Source: an uncultured Candidatus Saccharibacteria bacterium (lineage in GTDB: Bacteria; Patescibacteriota; Dojkabacteria; GCA-002793355). From it: a DNA stretch of 64,000 nucleotides. Location of the stretch: positions 150,360 to 214,359 of the forward strand of contig CAZGEO010000001.1 in the NCBI GenBank assembly GCA_964525295.1. The letters run 5' to 3'. The notes beneath the pieces are model-generated. The model was given only the letters and a program-made list of their open reading frames with translations. It was not told the origin of the DNA and made no database searches. Shown here piece after piece: positions 22,007 to 44,232 of this stretch. Positions within the stretch are counted from its first letter, which is position 1, and each line of letters opens with the position of its first letter. The position numbers were made by a program, and so were the translations under genes.

Positions 22007-22030
22007 TCATTTTGATTCCAAAAAAAAAGA

Positions 22031-29214: not shown

Positions 29215-30477
29215 ATGAAAATTACAAAAATAAAAGCCTATGAAATTCTTGCCTCAGGCGGTTACCCAACTGTCGAAGCAGAGGTCACTCTAGAAAACGG
29301 ATTTGTTGGTGTTGCCTCAGTTCCTTACGGTGCATCGGCGGGTTCACATGAAGCCACAGTACTAAATGATGGTGATGAAACTCGCTACGGTGGAAAAGGT
29401 GTTCTTAAGGCGATCGCAAACATTGAAAATGAAATTGCACCAGCAGTTATCGGAATGGATGCAACTGATCAAAGAGCACTCGACCAAAAAATGATTGAAC
29501 TTGATGGAACCCCCAATAAGGCACGACTCGGTGGCAATGCAATTCTTGCAGTTTCACTTGCTGCTGCGCGGGCAGTTGCGAATGCGACGGGAAAGCAACT
29601 ATATCGTCATATTATCGACACTTACAATACACAAGTTGATCTAGCCAAGCTACCAAACCCTATGGTTGTCGTTATTGAAGGTGGAAAGCACGCAGATGAA
29701 ACGACCGATCTCCAAGAATTCTGTATTACCGCAATTGGAGAGGGTAGTGTTAAAGAAAATGTTCGCAAAGCGATGGAAGCATATCATGCGCTCCGAGGAA
29801 TCTTGAAAGAGAATAAGCTCTCAACTAACGTTGGTAACGAAGGAGCATTCGCACCAAACGGTATTCCTACAAATGAATCACCCTTCCAATACATTGTAGA
29901 TGCAATTACGAAAGCTGGTTACGTTCCAGGTAAAGATCTTGGAATTTCAATCGACGCAGCAGCAAGTGAATTCTATGAAGACGGCAAATACGTACTCGCA
30001 GTAGAGAATCGCTCGTTGACTGCAGCTGAACTTATCGCTTATTACGAGACTTGGTTGCAAAAGTACCCGATTGTAACCTACGAAGATATGCTTCAAGAAG
30101 ATGATTGGGCAAACTGGGTCGAAATGAAAAAAGTAACTGACAAGTATAATGTTCCTCATATTGGCGATGATCTTACCGTTACAAACGTAGAACGACTACA
30201 AAAAGCAATCGATCTAAATGCGATTTCGGCGATTCTTATCAAGCTCAACCAAATTGGAACTCTTACTGAAACTGTCGATTGTTGCATGCTTGCTAACAAA
30301 CACGGATTAATGACAACGACCTCACACCGAGGTGGTGGAGAAACAAACGACACCGCAATGATCGATGTCGCAGTTGCAGTTGGCAGTAAGTTCGTTAAGG
30401 TTGGACCAACCCGCGGCGAACGAGTCAGCAAGTACAACAGATTGATGGAAATTGAAAGAGACGTTATCGGTAATTAA
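29215..30477 (+). CDS. eno: Enolase (phosphopyruvate hydratase).
   Basis: ILASGGYPTVEAEV. GASAGSHEA. SHRGGGETNDT and KVGPTRGERVSKYNRLMEIE signatures. Length 420 aa. Confidence 0.95.
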   Translation: MKITKIKAYEILASGGYPTVEAEVTLENGFVGVASVPYGASAGSHEATVLNDGDETRYGGKGVLKAIANIENEIAPAVIGMDATDQRALDQKMIELDGTPNKARLGGNAILAVSLAAARAVANATGKQLYRHIIDTYNTQVDLAKLPNPMVVVIEGGKHADETTDLQEFCITAIGEGSVKENVRKAMEAYHALRGILKENKLSTNVGNEGAFAPNGIPTNESPFQYIVDAITKAGYVPGKDLGISIDAAASEFYEDGKYVLAVENRSLTAAELIAYYETWLQKYPIVTYEDMLQEDDWANWVEMKKVTDKYNVPHIGDDLTVTNVERLQKAIDLNAISAILIKLNQIGTLTETVDCCMLANKHGLMTTTSHRGGGETNDTAMIDVAVAVGSKFVKVGPTRGERVSKYNRLMEIERDVIGN

Positions 30478-30623
30478 CAATTTTCAATTAGGAATTGTCA
30501 ATTAGTAGGTCGCACGATGTTTTTGTGTTTCACAAGAAAAATTATTGAAAAAACATTCTCTTAATTACGGCGATTTTGTCGGCGAAGAAACACTCTCTCA
30601 AAATGTGAAACGTATCTATTCAC

Positions 30624-31199
30624 TTATTCCACGAAATCTACAAGAAGTGTTTGCCAGCCTCGTTTGTTAGCAGCTTCGATATTTACGATCGTGTCATCAA
30701 CAAAGAGGATATCTGAACCACAATATCCGCAAGCTTTTTCAGCAATTTCGTAAATTTCAGGCTCAGGTTTAACATACCCAACTGAAGAAGAGTCGAGAAT
30801 TGTTGCGTACTCATATTTGGGAACCAAACCTTGATTAAATGCATGATCAAGCAAAGTTTCCCACGCATTTGTAAATAAGCCAGCAGGTGCTTTTTGAGAT
30901 AACTCAGCAAACAATTGATGACCTTGATTCATCACAGAAGCTCCTGCATTCCATTCAATCGTATAATTAATAGTCTCATCATATATGCCACCGGCTGAAA
31001 CAATAAGCTTCCGCCAGAATTCTTCTAATGAAATTCTCCCTGAACAACCTTCTAAAACATGCGTTTTCATTGCATTGCCAACGCGCGCTGAATCAAGAGA
31101 GAATTTCTCTGCAAAAACTATGTGATTTCTTCGATGGTTAAGTAAAACGCCACCAATATCAAAATAAACGAACTTCGGTTCGGTACTAAGCTGTAACAT
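30624..31199 (-). CDS. HAD-superfamily hydrolase, subfamily IA-like.
   Basis: Motif I FVYFDIGGVLL (DxGGVL). Downstream Lys and Asp motifs (FVDDTIVN). Confidence 0.6.
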   Translation of the reverse strand: MLQLSTEPKFVYFDIGGVLLNHRRNHIVFAEKFSLDSARVGNAMKTHVLEGCSGRISLEEFWRKLIVSAGGIYDETINYTIEWNAGASVMNQGHQLFAELSQKAPAGLFTNAWETLLDHAFNQGLVPKYEYATILDSSSVGYVKPEPEIYEIAEKACGYCGSDILFVDDTIVNIEAANKRGWQTLLVDFVE

Positions 31200-31239
31200 A
31201 TCGTAAGTTATACCTTTCTAACGTGATTTCCGCAAGATA

Positions 31240-31268
31240 TTGCGAAAAGTTTCCCCATCGTCTATAAT
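31240..31268 (+). promoter_or_regulatory. Sigma70-like promoter for the tRNA gene.
   Basis: -35 TTGCGA at 31240-31245. 17-nt spacer. -10 TATAAT at 31263-31268. tRNA 5' end 10 nt downstream. Confidence 0.5.
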
Positions 31269-31278
31269 ACTGAACAAT

Positions 31279-31350
31279 CCAGAGGTAGCTCAGTGGTAGA
31301 GCCGGAGACTGTAAATCTCTTGGTCGGGGGTTCAAATCCCTCCCTCTGGA
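31279..31350 (+). tRNA. tRNA-Tyr (anticodon GUA), 72 nt, class I with a short 5-nt variable loop. C1:G72, A73, no encoded CCA.
   Basis: Manual fold. Acceptor CCAGAGG/CCTCTGG. U8. D-stem GCTC/GAGC with GG in the loop. Anticodon stem GGAGA/TCTCT. Loop CU-GUA-AA with U33 and A37. T-arm GGGGG-TTCAAAT-CCCTC. A T-run follows. Confidence 0.8.
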
Positions 31351-31363
31351 TTTTTTTATTACC

Positions 31364-32236
31364 CTACAATAACTGATGCGCTCGCACAATTGCTCGCGCT
31401 GTATCAATATCATCAAATTCTGGCGGCTCGCGACGTAAACTTTGCGCTAGCATAGAGATAGTTTCAGTGTATTCACGCATAAATTCCTGCTTCCCCATTT
31501 CATAAAGAACATAATCAAGGTGATTAAGTTTTCGTAATTCTGTAATTGTTTCCTCATCAAAATCCGTTATTTGAGGCCTACCCGAAAAAGTCATTTCTCG
31601 TTTGTTATCAACACGTGGAGTTAACCCAGTCTTAAACGCAAGCAGTAAACACGATTGTTCAAAGTATTCTTGAATGCCGACAAAATCTAATGTTTTGAGG
31701 TGCTTTACGGCATTCCCTAAAAGTTCTGATTCTGGCATTTTTCCCGCATGCTTACTCAAAATGTGATGAATTGCCGAAGAAGATTCCAATTCTTCAGAAG
31801 TTGTATTCTGTAAGATATCAATATCGATACCAACAAATCGAGCTTGCGCGTTCCAATAATGGGTTCTAACACTCTCAACTTGAAGCATCTTTTTCAAATC
31901 ACCATTTTCTATTGACTTATACTCTCTGTTGGCGACTGTATGAACCAAATATGGGTCGACGAGAGCATGGTGATGTTGCGAGATAACCCTCTCAACTGGG
32001 TCGCGAAGAAAGGTTAATGTAAAAGCATCTTGTGGCAAAAATCTGCGCAGACTATACCCGAAATGTCCACGATAAAATCGATACTTATTCCAGGGCATGG
32101 GAGAATGTTTAACAATATCATACCAAAAATGACCGGGAAAAATTTCTTCTTCGGTAAAGAATTTTGAAAAGTAACCAGTAAAGGAAGTTCCCGCAGTTTT
32201 GGGAATGTGTAAGAAATAGTACGTGCGGTCTTTCAT
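31364..32236 (-). CDS. Sulfotransferase-family protein.
   Basis: 5'-PSB-like motif FLHIPKTAGTSF (PKTGGTS). 3'-PB-like FLRDPVERVISQ. Length 290 aa. Confidence 0.6.
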   Translation of the reverse strand: MKDRTYYFLHIPKTAGTSFTGYFSKFFTEEEIFPGHFWYDIVKHSPMPWNKYRFYRGHFGYSLRRFLPQDAFTLTFLRDPVERVISQHHHALVDPYLVHTVANREYKSIENGDLKKMLQVESVRTHYWNAQARFVGIDIDILQNTTSEELESSSAIHHILSKHAGKMPESELLGNAVKHLKTLDFVGIQEYFEQSCLLLAFKTGLTPRVDNKREMTFSGRPQITDFDEETITELRKLNHLDYVLYEMGKQEFMREYTETISMLAQSLRREPPEFDDIDTARAIVRAHQLL

Positions 32237-32377
32237 TGCGACATTGTACGAACTGAAATGACGTTGGTCAAATTCGCGGATTTACTTTCACCCACGTCTT
32301 CACTAACATGGTACTCTCGCTCAAAAAATTAACATCCCTGGCATTACGCTTTGCAATGAATACCTGCGAATAATTGA

Positions 32378-33361
32378 GTGACGGTAACATTACTTACTGT
32401 ATTTATGTATAATAAGGTAATGAGAAATCCTTTAACAATAATCAAAGAAAAAATTCAGAAATTAGATTCAATTGAGAAAAAGGTCGATAAACTTCTCGCA
32501 AATAGATCCGAGAACAGAAGAGGTCCAGAACAACCTGCAGAGATACTCCAACAAGAATTACAAAAAAAACAAAAACTTTTGAAATCTTCACTCTGCAAAG
32601 AACTCGATTTTCACCAACCATGGTATGCAAAATGGTGCGCTGAAATTAATCAGAAACCTGCATTCCATCGTAAACAATGGGAATTCGCATATATTTTGCA
32701 GGCTTTACATGAACGAGGCATGCTTCAAGAAGGGAAAAAAGGATTAGGTTTTGCTGTTGGCTCCGAACAATTGCCAGCATTATTTGCGAAATACAAAATG
32801 ACCATTTTAGCGACAGATTTAGATCCAGAGCAAGGTGCAGAAAAAGGTTGGACCACCGGAGATCAACTCTGTTACGGGGTTGAGTCATTTGCCAAACATG
32901 GCATTGCGTCACTCGAGACATTGCAAAAATACGTAACCTACCGTGCTGTTGATATGAATAACATTCCTGATGATCTAAAAGATTTTGATTTCACCTGGTC
33001 AGCCTGTGCATTCGAGCACCTTGGTTCAATCGAAAATGGCTTAAAATTTGTTGAGAATCAGATGAAAACATTGAAACCTGGTGGCTATGCAATTCATTCC
33101 TCCGAATACAACATCAGTTCAAATGACGATACCGTTGAAAATGAAAATCTCGTTTTGTTTAGACAACGTGATTATCAAGAACTTGCAGAAAGACTACGTA
33201 AACAAGGTCACTTTGTAGAAGAATTAGATTTTTCTCTTGGTTGGTTACCAACAGATTATTTTGTTGATGTGCCCCCATATTTGCAAGACAAACATCTTAG
33301 GTTACAGATCGATCGATTCGTAACTAGCTCATTTTGCTTAATTATTCGAAAGAAACTGTAG
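32378..33361 (+). CDS. Putative SAM-dependent methyltransferase with an N-terminal coiled-coil. May modify a glycan.
   Basis: N-terminal heptad-like KEKIQKLDSIEKKVDKLL...QQELQKKQKLLK. Then a motif-I-like KGLGFAVGSE and acidic ILATDLD. The family call is tentative. Confidence 0.4.
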   Translation: MTVTLLTVFMYNKVMRNPLTIIKEKIQKLDSIEKKVDKLLANRSENRRGPEQPAEILQQELQKKQKLLKSSLCKELDFHQPWYAKWCAEINQKPAFHRKQWEFAYILQALHERGMLQEGKKGLGFAVGSEQLPALFAKYKMTILATDLDPEQGAEKGWTTGDQLCYGVESFAKHGIASLETLQKYVTYRAVDMNNIPDDLKDFDFTWSACAFEHLGSIENGLKFVENQMKTLKPGGYAIHSSEYNISSNDDTVENENLVLFRQRDYQELAERLRKQGHFVEELDFSLGWLPTDYFVDVPPYLQDKHLRLQIDRFVTSSFCLIIRKKL

Positions 33362-33368
33362 TACAATA

Positions 33369-34139
33369 GTGAATATGACCAGTAACTATTTCGACTTGCT
33401 AAGAGAATTTTTCGTTACTGATTTCAAATTACGTTATAAACACTCATATTTGGGATTCTTGTGGGTTGTCATGAAACCACTTTCACAGTACGCAATTCTT
33501 TACATCATTTGGACCTCATTGTTCGGAAGAACTGCTGACTTTGCGTCATATCTTTTAATCGGAATTTTATCTCTTTCTTATTTTTCAGAAGGAGTTGTTT
33601 TTGGTATGCAGGCACTTCAAAACAAGGCGCATATTATATTAAAAGTTCGTTTCCCTCGAGAAGTGGTGGTTTTAAGTTCAGTTATGATCGCAACCGTTAA
33701 TTATCTCATCAATTTAGGAATTTACTTTCTATTCAGGATCGTGTCACAACAACCACTTTTCGCCGGTAATTGGCTATTATTTGTGCTCGGATTCATTCTT
33801 CTTACGCTTTTCTTGTTTGGGCTTGCCTTCTTTACTAGCATAATCAGCGTTAAATATCACGATATCCGTCATTTAATCGAGTTGTTATTACAACTCATGT
33901 TCTGGGCTACGCCAATTTTTTATAGTTTGTCGCAACTTCCTAAAAAACTAGCAGCCATTTTAAGCAATTTTAATCCATTAGTTTCAATATTAACCCTGCT
34001 TCGAGGAGGCTTGTTGGCTGACGCAGATCCGGTAAATTGGCAAACAATTGCATTTATGACCTTGTTTATCCTTTTTATCACAATTACTGGCTATTGGTCG
34101 TTCAAGAAACGTTTACCTAAAATCGCAGAATTCTTTTAA
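33369..34139 (+). CDS. ABC-2 type polysaccharide/teichoic-acid exporter permease (Wzm/TagG-like).
   Basis: 256 aa with six TM helices. N-terminal FVTDFKLRYKHSYLGFLWVVMKP is typical of Wzm/KpsM/TagG. Directly followed by the ATPase gene. Confidence 0.8.
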   Translation: MNMTSNYFDLLREFFVTDFKLRYKHSYLGFLWVVMKPLSQYAILYIIWTSLFGRTADFASYLLIGILSLSYFSEGVVFGMQALQNKAHIILKVRFPREVVVLSSVMIATVNYLINLGIYFLFRIVSQQPLFAGNWLLFVLGFILLTLFLFGLAFFTSIISVKYHDIRHLIELLLQLMFWATPIFYSLSQLPKKLAAILSNFNPLVSILTLLRGGLLADADPVNWQTIAFMTLFILFITITGYWSFKKRLPKIAEFF

Positions 34140-34140
34140 C

Positions 34141-34881
34141 ATGGACGCAATAACAGTAAACTCGCTGACGAAATCATTCACAATTCCTCATGAGCGAAAA
34201 AACTCACTCGTAGAAATGCTGACCAAATCATTTCAAAAAGTTCCCGTCGATAAACTTGAAGTACTTAAAAACATTTCATTTACCGTTAAAAAGGGTGAAA
34301 CATTAGGAATAATTGGCACGAATGGAGCAGGTAAATCAACTTTACTAAAACTCATCGCAGGTATTTACACACCAGATGCTGGGACCATAGCTCTTGGAGG
34401 TAAATTGGTACCATTTCTTGAACTTGGTGTAGGATTCAACCCAGAACTAACTGGAAGAGAAAACGTGTTTTTAAACGGCATTATTCTTGGAATGTCGCGT
34501 TCTTTTCTAAAACAGAAATTCGACGAGATTGTTTCATTTTCTGAGCTTGAGAGATTCATCGATTTACCACTGAAAAACTATTCTTCTGGTATGCAAGTTC
34601 GACTCGCGTTTTCAATAGCATTCATGGCAGAAGCAGATATTTATTTACTTGATGAAGTTTTTTCTGTTGGAGATATGGCATTTCAAGAGAAGAGCAAAAC
34701 AATTTTTAAGCATCTTAAAGAAGAAGGTAAAACACTTGTATTAGTTTCACATTCACTCCCAACGATGAGTGAAAATGCCGATCGTTTGTTGCTTTTACAC
34801 CAAGGTAAGGTGCAACTATTTGATTCAGTTGCCGCTGGAATCGAAAAATACGAACAACTGGTTAAACAAAACAGCAATTAA
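34141..34881 (+). CDS. ABC transporter ATP-binding protein (Wzt/TagH-like), with no extra C-terminal domain.
   Basis: Walker A GTNGAGKST. ABC signature LSSGMQVRLAFSIA. Walker B YLLDEVFSVGD. H-loop VSHS. Start is 2 nt after the permease stop. Confidence 0.85.
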   Translation: MDAITVNSLTKSFTIPHERKNSLVEMLTKSFQKVPVDKLEVLKNISFTVKKGETLGIIGTNGAGKSTLLKLIAGIYTPDAGTIALGGKLVPFLELGVGFNPELTGRENVFLNGIILGMSRSFLKQKFDEIVSFSELERFIDLPLKNYSSGMQVRLAFSIAFMAEADIYLLDEVFSVGDMAFQEKSKTIFKHLKEEGKTLVLVSHSLPTMSENADRLLLLHQGKVQLFDSVAAGIEKYEQLVKQNSN

Positions 34882-34888
34882 CAAAGAC

Positions 34889-36208
34889 TTACAATTTCGC
34901 AAGACCTGCTTTTATCTTTTCATACATAACTTGTTCTGTGTATTTCTTCGACTGCTCAGTACCTTTGCGGATAAGGTCAACGCGCAATTGAGGATCTTTC
35001 AAAATCTTCAATAATTTTTGTGAAATTTCACCAACAGAGTAGGGGTTATCAATTTTTAGAACGGCCTCTCCGGCTACTTCTGCCAAAGCTCCACGTACAC
35101 TCGAAACAGCAGGGCACCCCAATGCAAAAGCTTCTAAGACAGGTAAGCCAAATCCTTCATATAGTGTCGGATTTACTAATGCAATCGCATGTTTTAGCAA
35201 AGTATATTTATCGTGCTCATTCGCATACCCCGTAAAGATAATTCTTTTCTGAATATGTTTTGGAGCTTTCTCTACCTCTTTGAAAATATCCTTAAATGCA
35301 TAAGTTTTATTACCAATGATAACTAGATTTGCGGTTGTCTTGTCGGCAATTGCAATAAATGCCTGAATTAATCGGTGTACATTTTTGCGTCTTTCAACAG
35401 AAGATATAAAAATAATAAATTCTTTACCTACAAGATCATTTTGAATGAGTACCGGGGAATCTGTTTCATAGAGTGGACGTTCATAATCAAATGCTGAAAT
35501 TGCAGCACCAATATTGTGAAGAAAGGTTGTTGGTTCAACTTCTTTGATTTTTGCTTCAGAGTCATCTGAAATTGTAAAAACTAAGTCAGAATTCCTTGTG
35601 ACATAATCAATTTGCTTCGCAAGTTTTGTCAACCAATTATTTTCGGGTGATTCTTCTGCAATTTCGAATGGAATCAAATCGTAAATAATCTGAATAGTTT
35701 TAACACCTTTAAGTTTCGGTACAACGACAGGAAAACTAAAGAAGACCGCATCAGGCTTAACTGTTTTGATAATTTTTTGTAAAGCGAATTTTCTAACAAT
35801 CTTTGGCAAAATTCCGATAAGGCGATAAAAATACGGCAAGTTAACTGCTGCATCAAAAAATGGCAGCAATGGAATACCAACAGATTTATCTTTATCAATT
35901 TTGGTTACAGGCGATTTTTGAAAGAAAAAGGCTTTCAAAAATCGCAACACTACGCGCCAGTTAGATTGCTTTGGGTCAACTTTGCGCGTCAATTCACCAC
36001 CGTTAACTAAATATTGGCGAATGTAAGTATTGTGAACTCTTTCAGCCATGCGTTCTGAGCCAACAGTTAGAGAAATTTTTGGATAACTTGTGAGAAGAAC
36101 AACTTCGTGCCCTTGATCGGCAAATGCTCTAACGACATGTTTCGTTACAAATTGCACACCACGATAGTTCAAATCTTCAAGTTCCGGCGCTACTACGAGT
36201 ATCTTCAT
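34889..36208 (-). CDS. Glycosyltransferase family 1 (GT4-type, retaining).
   Basis: C-terminal EGFGLPVLEAFALGCPAVSS carries the E-x7-E/GT1 signature. N-terminal KILVVAPE with Gly-rich loop. Length 439 aa. Confidence 0.85.
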   Translation of the reverse strand: MKILVVAPELEDLNYRGVQFVTKHVVRAFADQGHEVVLLTSYPKISLTVGSERMAERVHNTYIRQYLVNGGELTRKVDPKQSNWRVVLRFLKAFFFQKSPVTKIDKDKSVGIPLLPFFDAAVNLPYFYRLIGILPKIVRKFALQKIIKTVKPDAVFFSFPVVVPKLKGVKTIQIIYDLIPFEIAEESPENNWLTKLAKQIDYVTRNSDLVFTISDDSEAKIKEVEPTTFLHNIGAAISAFDYERPLYETDSPVLIQNDLVGKEFIIFISSVERRKNVHRLIQAFIAIADKTTANLVIIGNKTYAFKDIFKEVEKAPKHIQKRIIFTGYANEHDKYTLLKHAIALVNPTLYEGFGLPVLEAFALGCPAVSSVRGALAEVAGEAVLKIDNPYSVGEISQKLLKILKDPQLRVDLIRKGTEQSKKYTEQVMYEKIKAGLAKL

Positions 36209-36545: not shown

Positions 36546-36593
36546 AAAAGAGCCCAGTTTGACAGATGCGCGTATTAATGCGATAATACACTC

Positions 36594-36896
36594 ATGAACA
36601 CTAATTGGCGAACCAATGAATTAACCCAGCTTGCTGAAGCAATTGCTGTTTGTTCGACAATAGATGAAGTAGAGTCTTTTCTACGTGATTTACTCACCGA
36701 AGCAGAAATTAAAGAATTTGCAGGTAGATTAGCGGTTGCTAAAGCGTTGGCATCAGGAATCAGCCAAAGAACGGCTTCAAAGCAAACCGGTGTAAGTATC
36801 GCAACGGTCACCAGAGTCAATAAGTGGTTAACCAATGGCGCATCCGGGTACAAAAACGTTATCAACAAGATTTTCCATCATCATCATAAGGCGTAG
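36594..36896 (+). CDS. TrpR-like YerC/YecD-family DNA-binding protein ending in a His4 run (..FHHHHKA).
   Basis: RDLLTEAEIKEFAGRLAVAKAL...SQRTASKQTGVSIATVTRVNKWL matches the YerC/YecD Trp-repressor-like fold. Codons CAT x4 at 36876-36887. Confidence 0.65.
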   Translation: MNTNWRTNELTQLAEAIAVCSTIDEVESFLRDLLTEAEIKEFAGRLAVAKALASGISQRTASKQTGVSIATVTRVNKWLTNGASGYKNVINKIFHHHHKA

Positions 36897-36987
36897 TTTT
36901 TCGCTTTGTGATTTCATATTTTCCAAAAAAATAAAGGTAAGTAAGAAGAGACAAGGCGAAAAGCCTGATTTTTTTATAAATAAATTA

Positions 36988-36993
36988 TATAAT
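36988..36993 (+). promoter_or_regulatory. -10 element (TATAAT) about 10 nt upstream of the hisS ATG, so a leaderless or very short leader.
   Basis: TTATATAATACACGAATT-ATG. No Shine-Dalgarno between the box and the start. Confidence 0.4.
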
Positions 36994-37002
36994 ACACGAA
37001 TT

Positions 37003-38322
37003 ATGAATCAAAACTTCCTTTCAACGCAGCCTTATAAAGGTGCTCGAGATTTCTATCCAGAAGATATGCGTTTACGTAATTACATATTTAATACCTGGAA
37101 AAAAGTCTGTACCCGCTATGGATTCGAAGAATATGATTTCCCGATTCTTGAAAATTTCGAAGTTTTCGCCTCAAAATCTGGGGAAGAAATTGTGAATACG
37201 CAACTTTTCTCATTTGAAGATAGAGGTGGCAGAAAAGTTGCGATTCGCCCAGAACTTACGCCAAGTACCGTTCGCATGATTGCAGCTCGCATCAATGATT
37301 TACCAAAACCAATCAAATGGTTCATGATTGGTAACAACTGGCGTTTTGAAAAACCTCAAAAAGGGCGTGGCCGCGAATTTTATCAACTGGAGATGAACAT
37401 TTTTGGTGTTCCTGAAGTTGAAGCAGATTTTGAAATCTTTTCAGCAATTGTAGATATCATGTCGGCCTTTGGCGCGAATGAAACGATGTACAAAGTAAAG
37501 TACAGCGATCGCAGAATTATTTCGGCATTATTGCGTGATTACCTAAAGCTCGACGATGAAAAACAGGTTGCCGCCCGCAGAATTATGGATAAGCGCCAAA
37601 AAGTTTCGAAAGAAGATTTTGTCACAATGCTTGCAGAAGTTAACATTTCAGCAGGTGATGCAGAAAAAATCGATGCCTTTATGCTCAGTTCCTTTGCTGA
37701 TTTAAAGGGTGTCATTCCAGCAGAAATTCTTGAAAATAATGAGGGCTACAAGAATGTATTTGCTTTAGAAAAACTCTTGCAAACCTACGATATTCAAAAA
37801 TATTGCGAATTTGATCCGGGTATTATCAGAGGTTTCGATTATAGCGATGGATTAGTGTACGAAGTATTTGATAAGAATCCAGAAAACAGGCGTTCAATGT
37901 TCGGAGGAGAACGTTTTGACAGATTGATCAATGTTTATGGTAAATATGACATGGCTGCAACTGGCTTCGCCATGGGGGATATTACTTTGCAAGAATTCCT
38001 CAAAGGTTGGAATCTATTACCTGAATTTCCTAGTACAACCACGGTTCTTGTTACTCGTTTCGGTCAAGATGAAAAGTTTGAAGCATACAGCATAAAGACC
38101 GCCAAGAAACTGAGAGATGCTGGTATTACCGTTGACTTATACACCACACCTGATAAGCTCGAAAAACAATTGAAATATGCTGACAAGAAGGGAATACCTT
38201 ACGTCATCATTGCGGGTGAAGAAGAAATTACGAAAAGTACTGTCGTATTGAAGAATATGCGCAAAAAGGATCAAACAATAGTTCAACTTACTGACTTATG
38301 TGATGTAGTAAATGGCACCTAA
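37003..38322 (+). CDS. hisS: Histidyl-tRNA synthetase, class IIa.
   Basis: Motif 1/2 region FRFEKPQKGRGREFYQ matches RYERPQKGRYRQFHQ. Motif 3 region. C-terminal anticodon-binding domain (VLVTRFGQDE...YVIIAGEEE). Start taken at ATG 37003; the track ORF from 36835 is an upstream extension. Confidence 0.9.
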   Translation: MNQNFLSTQPYKGARDFYPEDMRLRNYIFNTWKKVCTRYGFEEYDFPILENFEVFASKSGEEIVNTQLFSFEDRGGRKVAIRPELTPSTVRMIAARINDLPKPIKWFMIGNNWRFEKPQKGRGREFYQLEMNIFGVPEVEADFEIFSAIVDIMSAFGANETMYKVKYSDRRIISALLRDYLKLDDEKQVAARRIMDKRQKVSKEDFVTMLAEVNISAGDAEKIDAFMLSSFADLKGVIPAEILENNEGYKNVFALEKLLQTYDIQKYCEFDPGIIRGFDYSDGLVYEVFDKNPENRRSMFGGERFDRLINVYGKYDMAATGFAMGDITLQEFLKGWNLLPEFPSTTTVLVTRFGQDEKFEAYSIKTAKKLRDAGITVDLYTTPDKLEKQLKYADKKGIPYVIIAGEEEITKSTVVLKNMRKKDQTIVQLTDLCDVVNGT

Positions 38323-38896
38323 TTATCCCGCACCAAAAGAATCACTAGCACAAAAAACGTCGCAACAAATTATTGGTGATTTGATTGATAAACGTGAAAA
38401 GAGTAGATATTACCAAGAACTCGTTCAAACTCCGAAGAAGGCCGGTAATTTGCTCAAAGAGTGTTTACGAGAATATAAAAACCCACTAAATAATTTCATT
38501 GCGTATCTTGCTACTTCTGGTATTTCTCAATACGATGATGATTCACCAATAAAATCTGCCCTCAAAATCTTTTGTAGTGAAGAAATTAATGCTCTCAAGG
38601 CGTACTCATTTAACAATATTCGTCAAGTAATAATCAAAATGATGGATTCATATTCATATGTTGATGCTGCTATGCCATTCTATGAGCAGATGGCAGAATA
38701 CATTGATGCAGAATCACTTGACAAAATTCGTGCTGAAATCATTGCTTCGCCAAATAGAGTGCGTGGGAAGGATATTCGATTGAATTTTAAACAACAAACA
38801 ATTTTGAATAGCATCATGGTTGCATTTTTAAAAGCACTTAGCATTAAAAATCCTGATAGTTCTTATAAATATACATATCACGATCTAGTTAAATGA
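38312..38896 (+). CDS. Hypothetical protein, paralog A of a tandem pair.
   Basis: 194 aa. Shares N-terminal (MAPN..AP), middle (EKSRYYQELVQTPKKAGNLL, NPLNNFIAYL) and C-terminal (AFLKALSIKNPDSSYKYTYHDL) blocks with the downstream gene. Confidence 0.5.
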   Translation: MAPNYPAPKESLAQKTSQQIIGDLIDKREKSRYYQELVQTPKKAGNLLKECLREYKNPLNNFIAYLATSGISQYDDDSPIKSALKIFCSEEINALKAYSFNNIRQVIIKMMDSYSYVDAAMPFYEQMAEYIDAESLDKIRAEIIASPNRVRGKDIRLNFKQQTILNSIMVAFLKALSIKNPDSSYKYTYHDLVK

Positions 38897-39389
38897 CACC
38901 AAACATAAAAAATTTAAATGCACCCTCAGCCCCAGCACAAGAAAAAAAAGAGCCTGTACTCAGCCAATCCAGGTTTTCAGCGACATTGTCATACAAAGAG
39001 AAGAAAGTAAGTATTTTAAACAATTGCAAGATTCGCCCGAATTAGCCGGGAATATATTACTTTCTCTCGTTATCGATAAATTTCGCCCGCTCAATAACTT
39101 CTACCTCTATTTTCTACCTGAGAACCAAATCGGACCAATCGAATCACCGATTTATAATTCCGCATTAGTGCAAGATATTCGCAGAGTTGCAAAACAAGAA
39201 TTGCAAAAGCTGCAAAAAATTCCAAATCTAAGAGAAAGGTTTACTCAATTTAACGATCTAAAACTTACTAGTATTACTGCAGAAGACAACATTTTTGCTG
39301 GTTTATACATGCAAGCATTTCTCAAAACATTAGCAATAAAGAATGATGATGGCAGTTACAAGTATACTTTCAGAGAATTGCGTGCTTAA
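38893..39389 (+). pseudogene. Paralog B of the tandem pair, interrupted by a frameshift at an A8 homopolymer (38942-38949). Candidate phase-variable gene, or a homopolymer sequencing error.
   Basis: ATG 38893 (MTPNIKNLNAPSAPAQEKK) is in frame +1 relative to the downstream ORF 39024-39389. The downstream frame is open back to 38889 and encodes ..IQVFSDIVIQREESKYFKQLQDSPELAGNILL, homologous to paralog A. The frames switch at the A8 tract. Confidence 0.5.
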
Positions 39390-42354: not shown

Positions 42355-44232
42355 ATGTACTACTTAATTACTCCGAAAAAGAAAAGTGCGTGTTTGGCAA
42401 CTGTACCTGCTGCTATTCAAACATTTGTATCGGATAACGAGTGTTACTTGCAGATTTATGATGATTCTCCAATTTTTGGTATCGCATATCGGCTACCTTC
42501 AGGCGACATTACACAGCTTGGCGGAACGATTGAGCCGTTATTTAGATTTACTAAAAAGAAATACTATTTAAGGCACATTACCTGGCAAGTTACTGAAGAG
42601 TTTCCAGAGTACGTAAACATAGAACGAATTTTTGAAAAAATCTTACGAAGACTTTTTAGAGCGATAGGAGAGTTTTCATTGTACATCATTCCACTAGATC
42701 GCTCCTATGTAGTAAAAGATGAAGAAACTGCAGACGAACTCGCACTCACCTTGGCTACTTCATATCCAGAAATTTTCAAAGAAAATGAGAAGCTAATAAA
42801 AAAAATTGAGAAGAATAATGACGTTGATTCAGTAATCGAAGAAATAAATTCGTACAACGTCCCCTATTCAATCATTCTGGCAAAGCTCTATGCATGGAGT
42901 CACCTTGAAGCCAACACATTGAACGGTAGAATTATGGATGCTTTAGTCGAAAATGTTTTTACACGACTTGAACCAAAGAAATGGAGAAAGGTTCGCTCCC
43001 TTATTCTCTACAAATTTATGCAAGGCGCGCGTTGGTTACGCAGTGGATTCTTGAGACATATCTCAGCACCTGTTCTTGTACGAACCTACTTAGGATTAAT
43101 AGACAAATGTTCATTAAATAATGAAACAACTCAATTTCTTGTAAATGATCTCATTTTAACCGGTATCGCGAAGGCTCAAGATACAACGTACAGAGAAATT
43201 AAAGAGAGACTTATCGCAAGAGTTAAAAAATTAAGTGGGGTACAAATTTTTGCTCCTGAAATTCTGTCGTTTTACGAATTAGAAAAAACTGGTAATCAGG
43301 AATTAGCCCTTAATACTTATATTTCTGCAAACAATAAACATACTCCAGCCAATCTCTATAGAAAAGAACTTCAAAAATCATTCCCTGTAATAACCTTTGT
43401 GAATGATTTTTTTCAGTCGACATTGAAGAATATATTCAAATTTGCCCCCTTCACCACAAAACTGAAAAATTGGCGACTAACATTTGCATTTTCATCAAAA
43501 AATCCGACAGCAAAACTAAGTAATGACACTACATTTGTCCCGCCAATTATAGCTGCGATATTCTCAATACTCGTTACAGGAATATCATGTTTTTCATATT
43601 TACAAAATATTCAAGAGAACAATGCTTTTATTGCATACTACCAAGCTGATACCTTTACCATTATAACCAAAATGTTTGGTTTGGGAGCATTATTACTCAT
43701 TCCAACAGCAGTCACCTTGTGGGTAATTTACAAAGCATTACTAAATATTCGAACTATGCAAAACGGACTGAAAAAGATTTTAGTTGCCGTTGGAGTAAGC
43801 ATTTTTGCGACTCCCTTTATAATTACTTTTGTTGGCTTACTGATGATAGTATTTGCAAATGTTTCGATTTCAGAAAAGACGATAGCTGGTGCTACAAACA
43901 CACACTTCGTCAAAGGCTTAGATTGGTATGCCTTTGATGAAATTGATCAGGTTACCTACCAGATCAAGTACTGCATAAGAACAGATACTTCTTGTGAACT
44001 ACCTACGATCGAATTACAGGGGCTCAAAAAGAATGGGACGTCTTTTTCATTCAAAACAGATTATATTTTTGAATCAAACAACTCGGAACGTCAAAAAGAG
44101 ACATGCAAAACATTAGAAACTTTCAACAAAGAAATGAAAGCGCGTAATGTAAAAATTAGAAGCGCATCTTCGCTCGATTTTGGCGTTGCACTTAGTATGC
44201 ATTGCAAAACACAGACATTGGAATCCAATTGA
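42355..44232 (+). CDS. Hypothetical protein of 625 aa. N-terminal soluble region of about 380 aa, 3-4 TM helices, and a C-terminal Cys-containing extracytoplasmic domain.
   Basis: Long ORF. Hydrophobic helices around residues 390-520. No assignable motif. Confidence 0.5.
   Translation: MYYLITPKKKSACLATVPAAIQTFVSDNECYLQIYDDSPIFGIAYRLPSGDITQLGGTIEPLFRFTKKKYYLRHITWQVTEEFPEYVNIERIFEKILRRLFRAIGEFSLYIIPLDRSYVVKDEETADELALTLATSYPEIFKENEKLIKKIEKNNDVDSVIEEINSYNVPYSIILAKLYAWSHLEANTLNGRIMDALVENVFTRLEPKKWRKVRSLILYKFMQGARWLRSGFLRHISAPVLVRTYLGLIDKCSLNNETTQFLVNDLILTGIAKAQDTTYREIKERLIARVKKLSGVQIFAPEILSFYELEKTGNQELALNTYISANNKHTPANLYRKELQKSFPVITFVNDFFQSTLKNIFKFAPFTTKLKNWRLTFAFSSKNPTAKLSNDTTFVPPIIAAIFSILVTGISCFSYLQNIQENNAFIAYYQADTFTIITKMFGLGALLLIPTAVTLWVIYKALLNIRTMQNGLKKILVAVGVSIFATPFIITFVGLLMIVFANVSISEKTIAGATNTHFVKGLDWYAFDEIDQVTYQIKYCIRTDTSCELPTIELQGLKKNGTSFSFKTDYIFESNNSERQKETCKTLETFNKEMKARNVKIRSASSLDFGVALSMHCKTQTLESN

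Follow-up and report, generated by a model that had tools for sequence, protein, structure and literature searches.

A probably recent, strain-specific frameshift at a poly(A) run in the second of two tandem paralogs beside hisS

Programmed -1 frameshifting on the heptamers A_AAA_AAG and A_AAA_AAA is a familiar feature of dnaX and of IS elements. Poly(A) tracts near the 5' end of a gene can also differ between strains of one species, as in Listeria monocytogenes inlA, where the alleles differ in the number of adenines and reversion has been measured, tracts of this type reverting at a rate about 1000 times that of point mutations (Orsi, Bowen and Wiedmann 2010, PMC2831843). In Buchnera and Blochmannia, according to a review, frameshifted genes are rescued by RNA polymerase slippage at poly(A) runs of at least 9, for which transcripts have been sequenced (PMC5009743). 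Our literature searches found neither phase variation nor slippage rescue documented in Patescibacteria.

We analysed a window of 64,000 nucleotides (the whole stretch of DNA under study) in which two adjacent paralogous genes, termed here copy 1 and copy 2, follow the histidyl-tRNA synthetase gene hisS, and in which copy 2 is frameshifted at a run of eight adenines (A8). The window was compared with a syntenic contig (L040) from Logan SRR32934939, which represents a sister strain of the same species. As in inlA, a one-base frameshift lies in or beside a poly(A) tract within the first 20 codons and leaves a short truncated peptide, strains of one species differ in state, and the addition of an A would restore the frame. 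Unlike in inlA, a G interrupts the run in the intact allele and no variation in tract length was observed; moreover inlA encodes a surface virulence factor, whereas copy 2 is a cytoplasmic-looking ORFan. The locus resembles those of Buchnera and Blochmannia in combining a small, AT-rich, reduced genome with a poly(A) frameshift in a gene that is otherwise intact, but here the run is of 8. Copy 2 has in common with dnaX and the IS elements an in-phase slippery heptamer and the need for a shift in the -1 direction; unlike them it lacks a stimulatory element, shows no conservation of the shift and has an unshifted counterpart in the closest relative. Finally, the locus is like a differential (reciprocal) loss of duplicates, with copy 2 disabled in one lineage and copy 1 deleted in the other. 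Here, however, the strains are only about 1.5% diverged and, since only two strain types are known, the reciprocity may be a coincidence.

On the + strand, hisS occupies positions 37003-38322 (PF13393, PF00587 and PF03129 on the called gene) and encodes 439 amino acids from ATG 37003, as it does in the sister strain. Its final 11 nt also form the beginning of copy 1, an intact + strand ORF of 194 amino acids at 38312-38896, and for this reason we take hisS to be the upstream gene of a presumed operon. The ATG of copy 2 (38893) overlaps the copy 1 stop codon as ATGA. With these two overlaps, hisS, copy 1 and copy 2 make up a compact unit, in which translation is probably coupled. No terminator-like or promoter-like site was found in a search of the + strand from hisS to 39389. 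A preliminary description of this DNA had called the two genes tandem paralogs on the basis of shared sequence blocks, and a formal BLASTP alignment bears this out: copy 1 and the repaired copy 2, adjacent and on the same strand, are collinear from end to end (E=4e-15, 28% identity over 191 columns), and the alignment crosses the junction between the two reading frames of copy 2. It contains 47 invariant columns, including those of the motifs PLNNF and AFLK.L.IKN.D.SYKYT.

The ORFs, the ATG at 38893 and the frame open to 38889 that had been reported for copy 2 were all found in place. Gene callers give only the TTG-started, 121-aa part of its 3' segment (39024-39389), the frame of which is open back to 38889. 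Scored against the collinear part of copy 1, the 25 residues encoded from the A8 run to the TTG outdid 4999 of 5000 shuffles, in agreement with the earlier statement that copy 2 remains paralogous upstream of the TTG. A further likeness claimed between the two N-termini (MTPN..AP and MAPN..AP) did not hold, 1852 of 5000 shuffles scoring as well; the choice of 38893 as the start was sound, however, and is corroborated by the intact 165-aa gene of L040, which begins at the matching ATG, the first start codon past an in-frame stop. This ATG opens a frame offset by +1, in which the 5' segment of copy 2 lies (38893-38949, + strand); an unshifted reading ends at TAA 39043-39045 and gives a product of 50 aa. 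The two frames meet at G-A8-G (38941-38950), as had been described, with the A8 run itself at 38942-38949 (+ strand). The run falls on codons 17-19 of 165, near the 5' end, and is read in the zero frame as GAA AAA AAA GAG, which contains an in-phase A_AAA_AAA heptamer. The 3' segment (38949-39389, + strand; 146 codons plus stop) is in the -1 frame, is collinear with copy 1 and holds no further stop or lesion. Computation of the repaired ORFs confirmed that one extra A, or two fewer, at the run produces a continuous frame of 165 aa, the trans-frame peptide of which spans the junction as ...AQEKKRACTQPIQVF..., also written ...APAQEKKRACTQPIQVFSDIVIQR.

The sister-strain contig is 98.4-98.6% identical to the window at the nucleotide level and carries an intact 165-aa copy 2 allele (protein P0003, in the same protein cluster). 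Across the junction this allele reads ...AQEKKRA..., exactly as had been predicted for the full-length protein, and so confirms the reconstruction residue for residue. It is encoded as GAA AAA AAG AGA GCC (A7-G-AGAGCC), where the window has A8-GAGCC and thus is without one G; downstream of the junction, 6510 aligned bases contain no indel but this G. Copy 2 has changed between the strains at 5 synonymous and 3 nonsynonymous sites, its 3' segment departing from the intact allele at 3 residues, and has a pN/pS of 0.16 that is similar to the values for neighbouring genes (0.00-0.16; binomial P 0.013 against neutrality). The ratio does not separate the two lineages, and it also fits a gene still expressed by recoding or switching. 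Copy 1 is absent from L040, which is about 556 bp shorter here; BLASTN and alignment against the window place the missing segment (net 556 bp, nearly all of copy 1) at 38337-38892 on the + strand, A-rich microhomology leaving its endpoints uncertain by a few bases. The hisS stop and the copy 2 ATG are separated by 14 nt in L040, as against 570 nt in the window.

We consider that copy 2, the second member of an old tandem pair, has probably suffered a recent frameshift specific to this strain. The base lost would be the G of codon 19 (AAG), whose removal would fuse A7 and the following A, and the allele comparison points to this deletion as the event that created the A8 run. With this G gone, ribosomes starting at 38893 would stop after 50 codons, the other 146 codons now lying in the -1 frame. 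Intact copy 1 presumably supplies the function in the window strain, and the sister strain would represent the opposite state, with copy 1 deleted and copy 2 intact. Each strain would then have one working copy, an outcome to be expected when redundant duplicates are lost under genome reduction; that copy 1 and copy 2 are redundant is assumed. The two-copy state is likely to be ancestral, since identity is only about 30% between the copies but 98.5% between the strains. Compared with the intact allele of L040, copy 2 in the window resembles a pseudogene in having a one-base deletion that brings in a stop after 50 codons, and shows neither the relaxed constraint nor the secondary lesions of one. 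The lack of secondary lesions and the low pN/pS argue that the lesion is young, and copy 2, if a pseudogene, would have become one only very recently. As a spare gene copy hit by a young frameshift, the locus is of an ordinary kind; it would be a natural example of an old tandem duplication that two strains about 1.5% apart have resolved in opposite directions. Because of the new A8 run the lesion may be slightly leaky, either by slippage of RNA polymerase or by a -1 ribosomal slip on A_AAA_AAA. It may also be revertible, since A9 in place of A8 would give the protein of the intact allele. A two-step route to the present allele is also possible, in which a synonymous change of AAG to AAA gave A9 and slippage to A8 followed, the second step being true homopolymer slippage.

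The preliminary description had read the locus as slipped-strand phase variation, in which the run in copy 2 would often gain or lose an A and so pass between OFF (A8) and ON (A9). Part of that reading stands, namely that copy 2 is a genuine full-length gene put out of frame in or beside a poly(A) run at its 5' end, and that another strain has an intact allele. The tract is placed where switchable genes typically have theirs and toggles the frame when its length changes, A9 would restore exactly the protein of the sister strain, the -1-frame part of copy 2 is free of secondary damage and has a low pN/pS, the locus differs between strains, and tracts of the inlA type revert fast. The part that found no support concerns the switch. 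The sole ON allele known has an interrupted tract (A7-G), and the length comparison across strains that had been proposed found the alleles to differ by loss of this G and not in the count of A; no tract-length variation between strains or assemblies was seen at the level of assemblies. All three contigs with copy 1 also bear the marks of the frameshifted allele, an ORF of 50 aa and one of 121 aa, and A8 is confirmed in the one of them whose DNA was read. Nor is the run exceptional against the background of the 64-kb window, where long ORFs taken as genes cover 95% of the sequence: six other A8/T8 runs all sit inside intact ORFs, one A9 run is intergenic, and the only A8 run in the region common to both strains (at 42798) is A8 in both. 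Copy 1 is without a comparable A tract, and the two proteins, lacking signal peptides and transmembrane segments, resemble no gene class typical of phase variation. We therefore regard frequent switching of copy 2 as unlikely, though a minority of A9 cells may be present in the population. More doubtful still is a scheme in which the paralogs are alternatives expressed one at a time, with the A8/A9 run as a reversible switch in two-copy strains. If it were true, no simple-sequence contingency locus would have been described before this one in a Patescibacteria (CPR) bacterium, and the switch would govern a protein family that is confined to this lineage and has no homolog elsewhere. The locus shows that a frameshift at a homopolymer calls for a comparison of alleles before it is taken as phase variation.

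Programmed recoding, whether by a -1 ribosomal slip or by insertion of an A by RNA polymerase, would yield the 50-aa and 165-aa products in a set ratio. The heptamer in the initiating frame is in the required phase (X_XXY_YYZ), so that a -1 slip or an extra A in the mRNA would give the full protein, and A or T runs do support slippage by bacterial RNA polymerase; efficient slippage, however, is documented for runs of 9 (PMC5009743). Copy 2 has 8 A, and its relative A7-G, where a conserved run of at least 9 A or T would be expected for transcriptional slippage. Against recoding, too, the frameshift is not conserved, the sole homolog outside this strain being encoded in a single frame, and a search of the site for the stimulatory elements of -1 frameshifting (a downstream hairpin or pseudoknot, an upstream SD-like sequence) found none: the 111 nt after the site have a folding z of 0.04 against shuffles and a wider stretch a z of -0.52, and no SD-like GGAGG or AGGAG was seen by eye in the 30 nt upstream. 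With an intact paralog next door, rescue of copy 2 would in any case be unnecessary. We judge programmed recoding to be very improbable, while low-level restoration of the frame in copy 2 mRNA is plausible by analogy with Buchnera and Blochmannia. The preliminary description had also allowed for a sequencing or assembly error, real copy 2 being intact and one base having been lost at the homopolymer. Indels in homopolymers are the commonest error in long-read assemblies, only a single base is involved and the remainder of copy 2 is intact, but an independent Logan k-mer assembly of SRR11582163 reproduces 20,585 bases of the window, A8 run included, at 100% identity, both the 50-aa and the 121-aa ORF recur on a third contig (50-200 kb), and none of the 34 other A/T runs of at least 7 in the window interrupts a long ORF. 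With the same A8 in a second assembly, we give an error scarcely any credence. A young frameshift in a presumably redundant pair remains our preferred reading, and the locus offers a specific and cheap read-level test case for phase variation or slippage rescue in Patescibacteria.

The suggestion of a variable surface protein was not upheld by localisation prediction, which found no signal peptide and no transmembrane segment in either protein, the maximum 19-residue Kyte-Doolittle score being below 1.0. Both proteins are hydrophilic with a pI of about 9, copy 1 being basic, and the AF2 model of copy 1 is all-alpha with a pLDDT of 49. A word-indexed search of 5.8 billion proteins with each copy as query, and an exhaustive HMMER profile search of 1.84 billion representative proteins, returned self matches only. 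Neither copy had a significant match in Pfam, PHROGs, PADLOC or NCBIfam, where the best family-library matches, QatB (E=0.024) and zf-HYPF (E=0.072), were rejected as noise. No match came from a profile search of PDB sequences, from viral contigs or, by tblastn with both copies as queries, from 37 hisS loci of related genomes. Scans of JGI metagenomes for protein patterns, and for an exact DNA pattern of 28 nt beside the tract, also found nothing. A literature search for the accessions SRR11582163 and SRR32934939 likewise found nothing. Judged from these searches, copy 1 and copy 2 are a species-restricted protein family in a variable slot beside hisS of a reduced Patescibacteria genome.

In closer relatives, the ORFs 3' of hisS (302 aa in L042, 139 aa in L044) bear no apparent relation to the pair when judged by eye; neither has the conserved motifs of the pair, and one has a hydrophobic, signal-peptide-like N-terminus. 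Each relative has its own accessory genes in the slot between hisS and the LCP gene.

Two genes follow hisS (ATG 37003 to TAA 38322). Copy 1 (194 aa) runs from ATG 38312, within the final 11 nt of hisS, to TGA 38894-38896. Copy 2 is divided between two frames. The initiating frame begins at ATG 38893, in an ATGA overlap with the copy-1 stop, encodes MTPNIKNLNAPSAPAQEKK, then runs into G-A8-G (38941-38950) and reaches a stop at 39043-39045 after 50 codons; the second frame lies one base behind, stays open between 38889 and TAA 39387-39389 and encodes ...RACTQPIQVFSDIVIQREESKYFKQLQDSPELAGN...SYKYTFRELRA. Gene callers report copy 2 only as a 50-aa ORF and a TTG-started 121-aa ORF. Addition of one A to the run, or removal of two, fuses the pieces into a protein of 165 aa.

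Judged by formal alignment, the similarity of the two copies is real. When copy 2 was rebuilt by joining both frames at the A8 run (38942-38949), BLASTP aligned it with copy 1 at E=4e-15 and 28% identity, collinear over residues 2 to 192, with 47 invariant columns that include AGN.L, PLNNF and AFLK.L.IKN.D.SYKYT. The tandem paralogy proposed in the preliminary description is borne out by this alignment, and its extension upstream of the TTG also holds: the stretch of 25 residues from the A8 run to the TTG, part of no called gene, beats 4999 of 5000 shuffles against the collinear segment of copy 1. The likeness of the first 19 residues, also put forward as evidence of similarity, is not significant alone (1852 of 5000 shuffles).

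Besides the 121-aa fragment, its protein cluster contains a single further member, a 165-aa protein (P0003) with the sequence MTPNIKNLNAPSAPAQEKKRAGTQPIQVF...FGELRA. It differs from the reconstruction by 3 substitutions and has the junction exactly as predicted, so that a natural intact allele validates the full-length second paralog expected upon frame repair. The protein is encoded on L040, an 8.6-kb contig of a sister strain (Logan, run SRR32934939) that is 98.4-98.6% identical to the window and carries, in order, Fuseless-like, trpR-like, hisS, the 165-aa gene, LCP, a 250-aa gene, ppa, a 625-aa gene and serS; the protein collection holds only these two strains of the species. Copy 1 is absent from L040, where the spacer from the hisS stop to the copy-2 ATG is 14 nt, compared with 570 nt in the window, and the junction shows A-rich microhomology. 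Since the copies are ~30% identical and the strains 98.5% identical, the duplication would long predate the divergence of the strains, and L040 is best read as having lost copy 1 by deletion.

The tract is CAAG AAAAAAA-AGAGCC in the window and CAAG AAAAAAAGAGAGCC in L040. The intact allele has the codons GAA AAA AAG AGA GCC (E K K R A); in the window AAG is without its G, and this is the sole indel in 6510 aligned bases. With this G missing, A7 is fused with the next A, so on this alignment the A8 run is made by the lesion and is not an older run altered in length; a two-step origin, in which AAG became AAA (synonymous, giving A9) and slippage then produced A8, is possible but less parsimonious. 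Comparison of the strains gives 5 synonymous and 3 nonsynonymous changes in copy 2, and the resulting pN/pS of 0.16 falls among the values of neighbouring genes (0.00-0.16), with a binomial P of 0.013 against the neutral expectation; the 146 codons of the -1 frame contain no further lesion. These results point to constraint on copy 2 through most of the divergence; by this measure the frameshift is young, or else compensated.

In the account that we consider probable, the two tandem paralogs are redundant and each strain has lost a different one: copy 2 here, through a recent deletion of a single base that left copy 1 intact, and copy 1 in the sister strain, through its deletion. Since an A8 run arose by chance from the one-base deletion, the frameshifted copy 2 may be somewhat leaky and more prone than usual to reversion. 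A homopolymer sequencing error, raised earlier as an alternative, or an artefact of assembly is very hard to credit: the Logan assembly of run SRR11582163 is identical to the window across 20,585 bases, all three contigs with copy 1 also have the 50-aa and 121-aa ORFs, and long ORFs taken as genes cover 95% of window bases, with no other homopolymer breaking a gene.

Classic phase variation of a surface protein, as first proposed, is unlikely, although part of the proposal stands: the A8 tract lies at the 5' end of copy 2, a run of A9 would give back the same protein, the strains are not alike at this locus, and 5' poly(A) tracts such as that of Listeria monocytogenes inlA mutate fast (PMC2831843). 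However, the comparison with L040 shows alleles that differ by the lost G and not by A count, no change of tract length is seen between known alleles, the known ON allele has an interrupted tract and copy 1 is without such a tract. A8 runs are also frequent and stable in this genome, with six other A8/T8 runs of the window lying within intact ORFs and the run at 42798-42805, in the region common to L040, being A8 in both strains. Nor was a signal peptide or transmembrane helix predicted in either protein (maximum Kyte-Doolittle score 0.98 and 0.73; GRAVY about -0.4, pI about 9), which gives no sign of a surface location. Programmed recoding of copy 2 is more doubtful still. The zero frame at the run is GAA AAA AAA GAG, with the heptamer A_AAA_AAA in phase, and a -1 ribosomal slip there would yield the same 165-aa protein as base addition. 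Against this, shuffled sequences folded as well as the downstream RNA (z = 0.04 and -0.52), no SD-like motif was seen upstream of the run when the sequence was read by eye, the shift is absent from the sole relative (L040), and the documented cases of efficient RNA polymerase slippage involve runs of 9 (PMC5009743). Low-level leakiness at the A8 run is plausible, though as an incidental effect rather than a programmed one.

Only self matches were returned for the pair among 5.8 billion clustered proteins, and likewise when an HMMER profile was run exhaustively over 1.84 billion representatives; no significant match was found in Pfam, PHROGs, PADLOC, NCBIfam, PDB sequences, JGI metagenomes or viral contigs. 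AlphaFold models were all-helical with a disordered N-terminus and of low confidence (pLDDT 59 and 49), and fold searches were uninformative.

HisS places the organism in the Patescibacteria, in a Dojkabacteria/WWE3-like group, with its best match in another species at 73-78% identity. What lies between hisS and the convergent LCP (LytR-CpsA-Psr) gene (38322-39389) differs in each relative, so the pair occupies a small variable slot and, on these comparisons, is confined to this species. Among the hisS loci of related genomes, the slot holds an EamA transporter in L003, L004 and L042, the last also having a 302-aa ORF with a signal-peptide-like N-terminus; a 243-aa ORF in L005, a putative short-chain dehydrogenase from its N-terminal motif; and apparently unrelated ORFs of 139 and 298 aa with a NUDIX gene in L044. 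In L043 it is empty. The flanking genes (trpR-like, hisS, LCP, 250-aa gene, ppa) remain syntenic. A small Trp-repressor-family gene (PF01371; 36594-36896) lies upstream of hisS here and in each of the six close relatives that were examined, four of which have the two genes side by side; in the window it is preceded by the region's best promoter-like site (36559-36587; 11/12 matches, with TG). This suggests a conserved regulator-synthetase unit. The mechanical hisS ORF of 495 aa, which starts at 36835 and extends into the trpR-like gene, is probably over-extended (36835-37002), because hisS in the sister strain and other relatives starts at MNQNF..., equivalent to ATG 37003 (439 aa). Upstream of the pair, 29215-36208 is a glycan/envelope cluster with a sulfotransferase, an ABC-2 permease and ATPase and a GT4 glycosyltransferase, with enolase and a HAD hydrolase at its upstream edge; an LCP gene and a Wzy_C-domain gene lie farther downstream.

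The intact allele contains an in-phase A_AAA_AAG heptamer (L040 2182-2196), a classic bacterial -1 slippery site, at which a slip would truncate the product and end it in 23 residues from the -1 frame; the site is probably incidental. The A9 run at 22020-22028, the window's longest homopolymer, is intergenic between convergent ORFs (ends 22006 and 22075). The 625-aa protein (42355-44232), without a Pfam match, contains the A8 at 42798-42805 in frame and has the highest synonymous divergence between the strains (pS 0.088) of nine genes compared.
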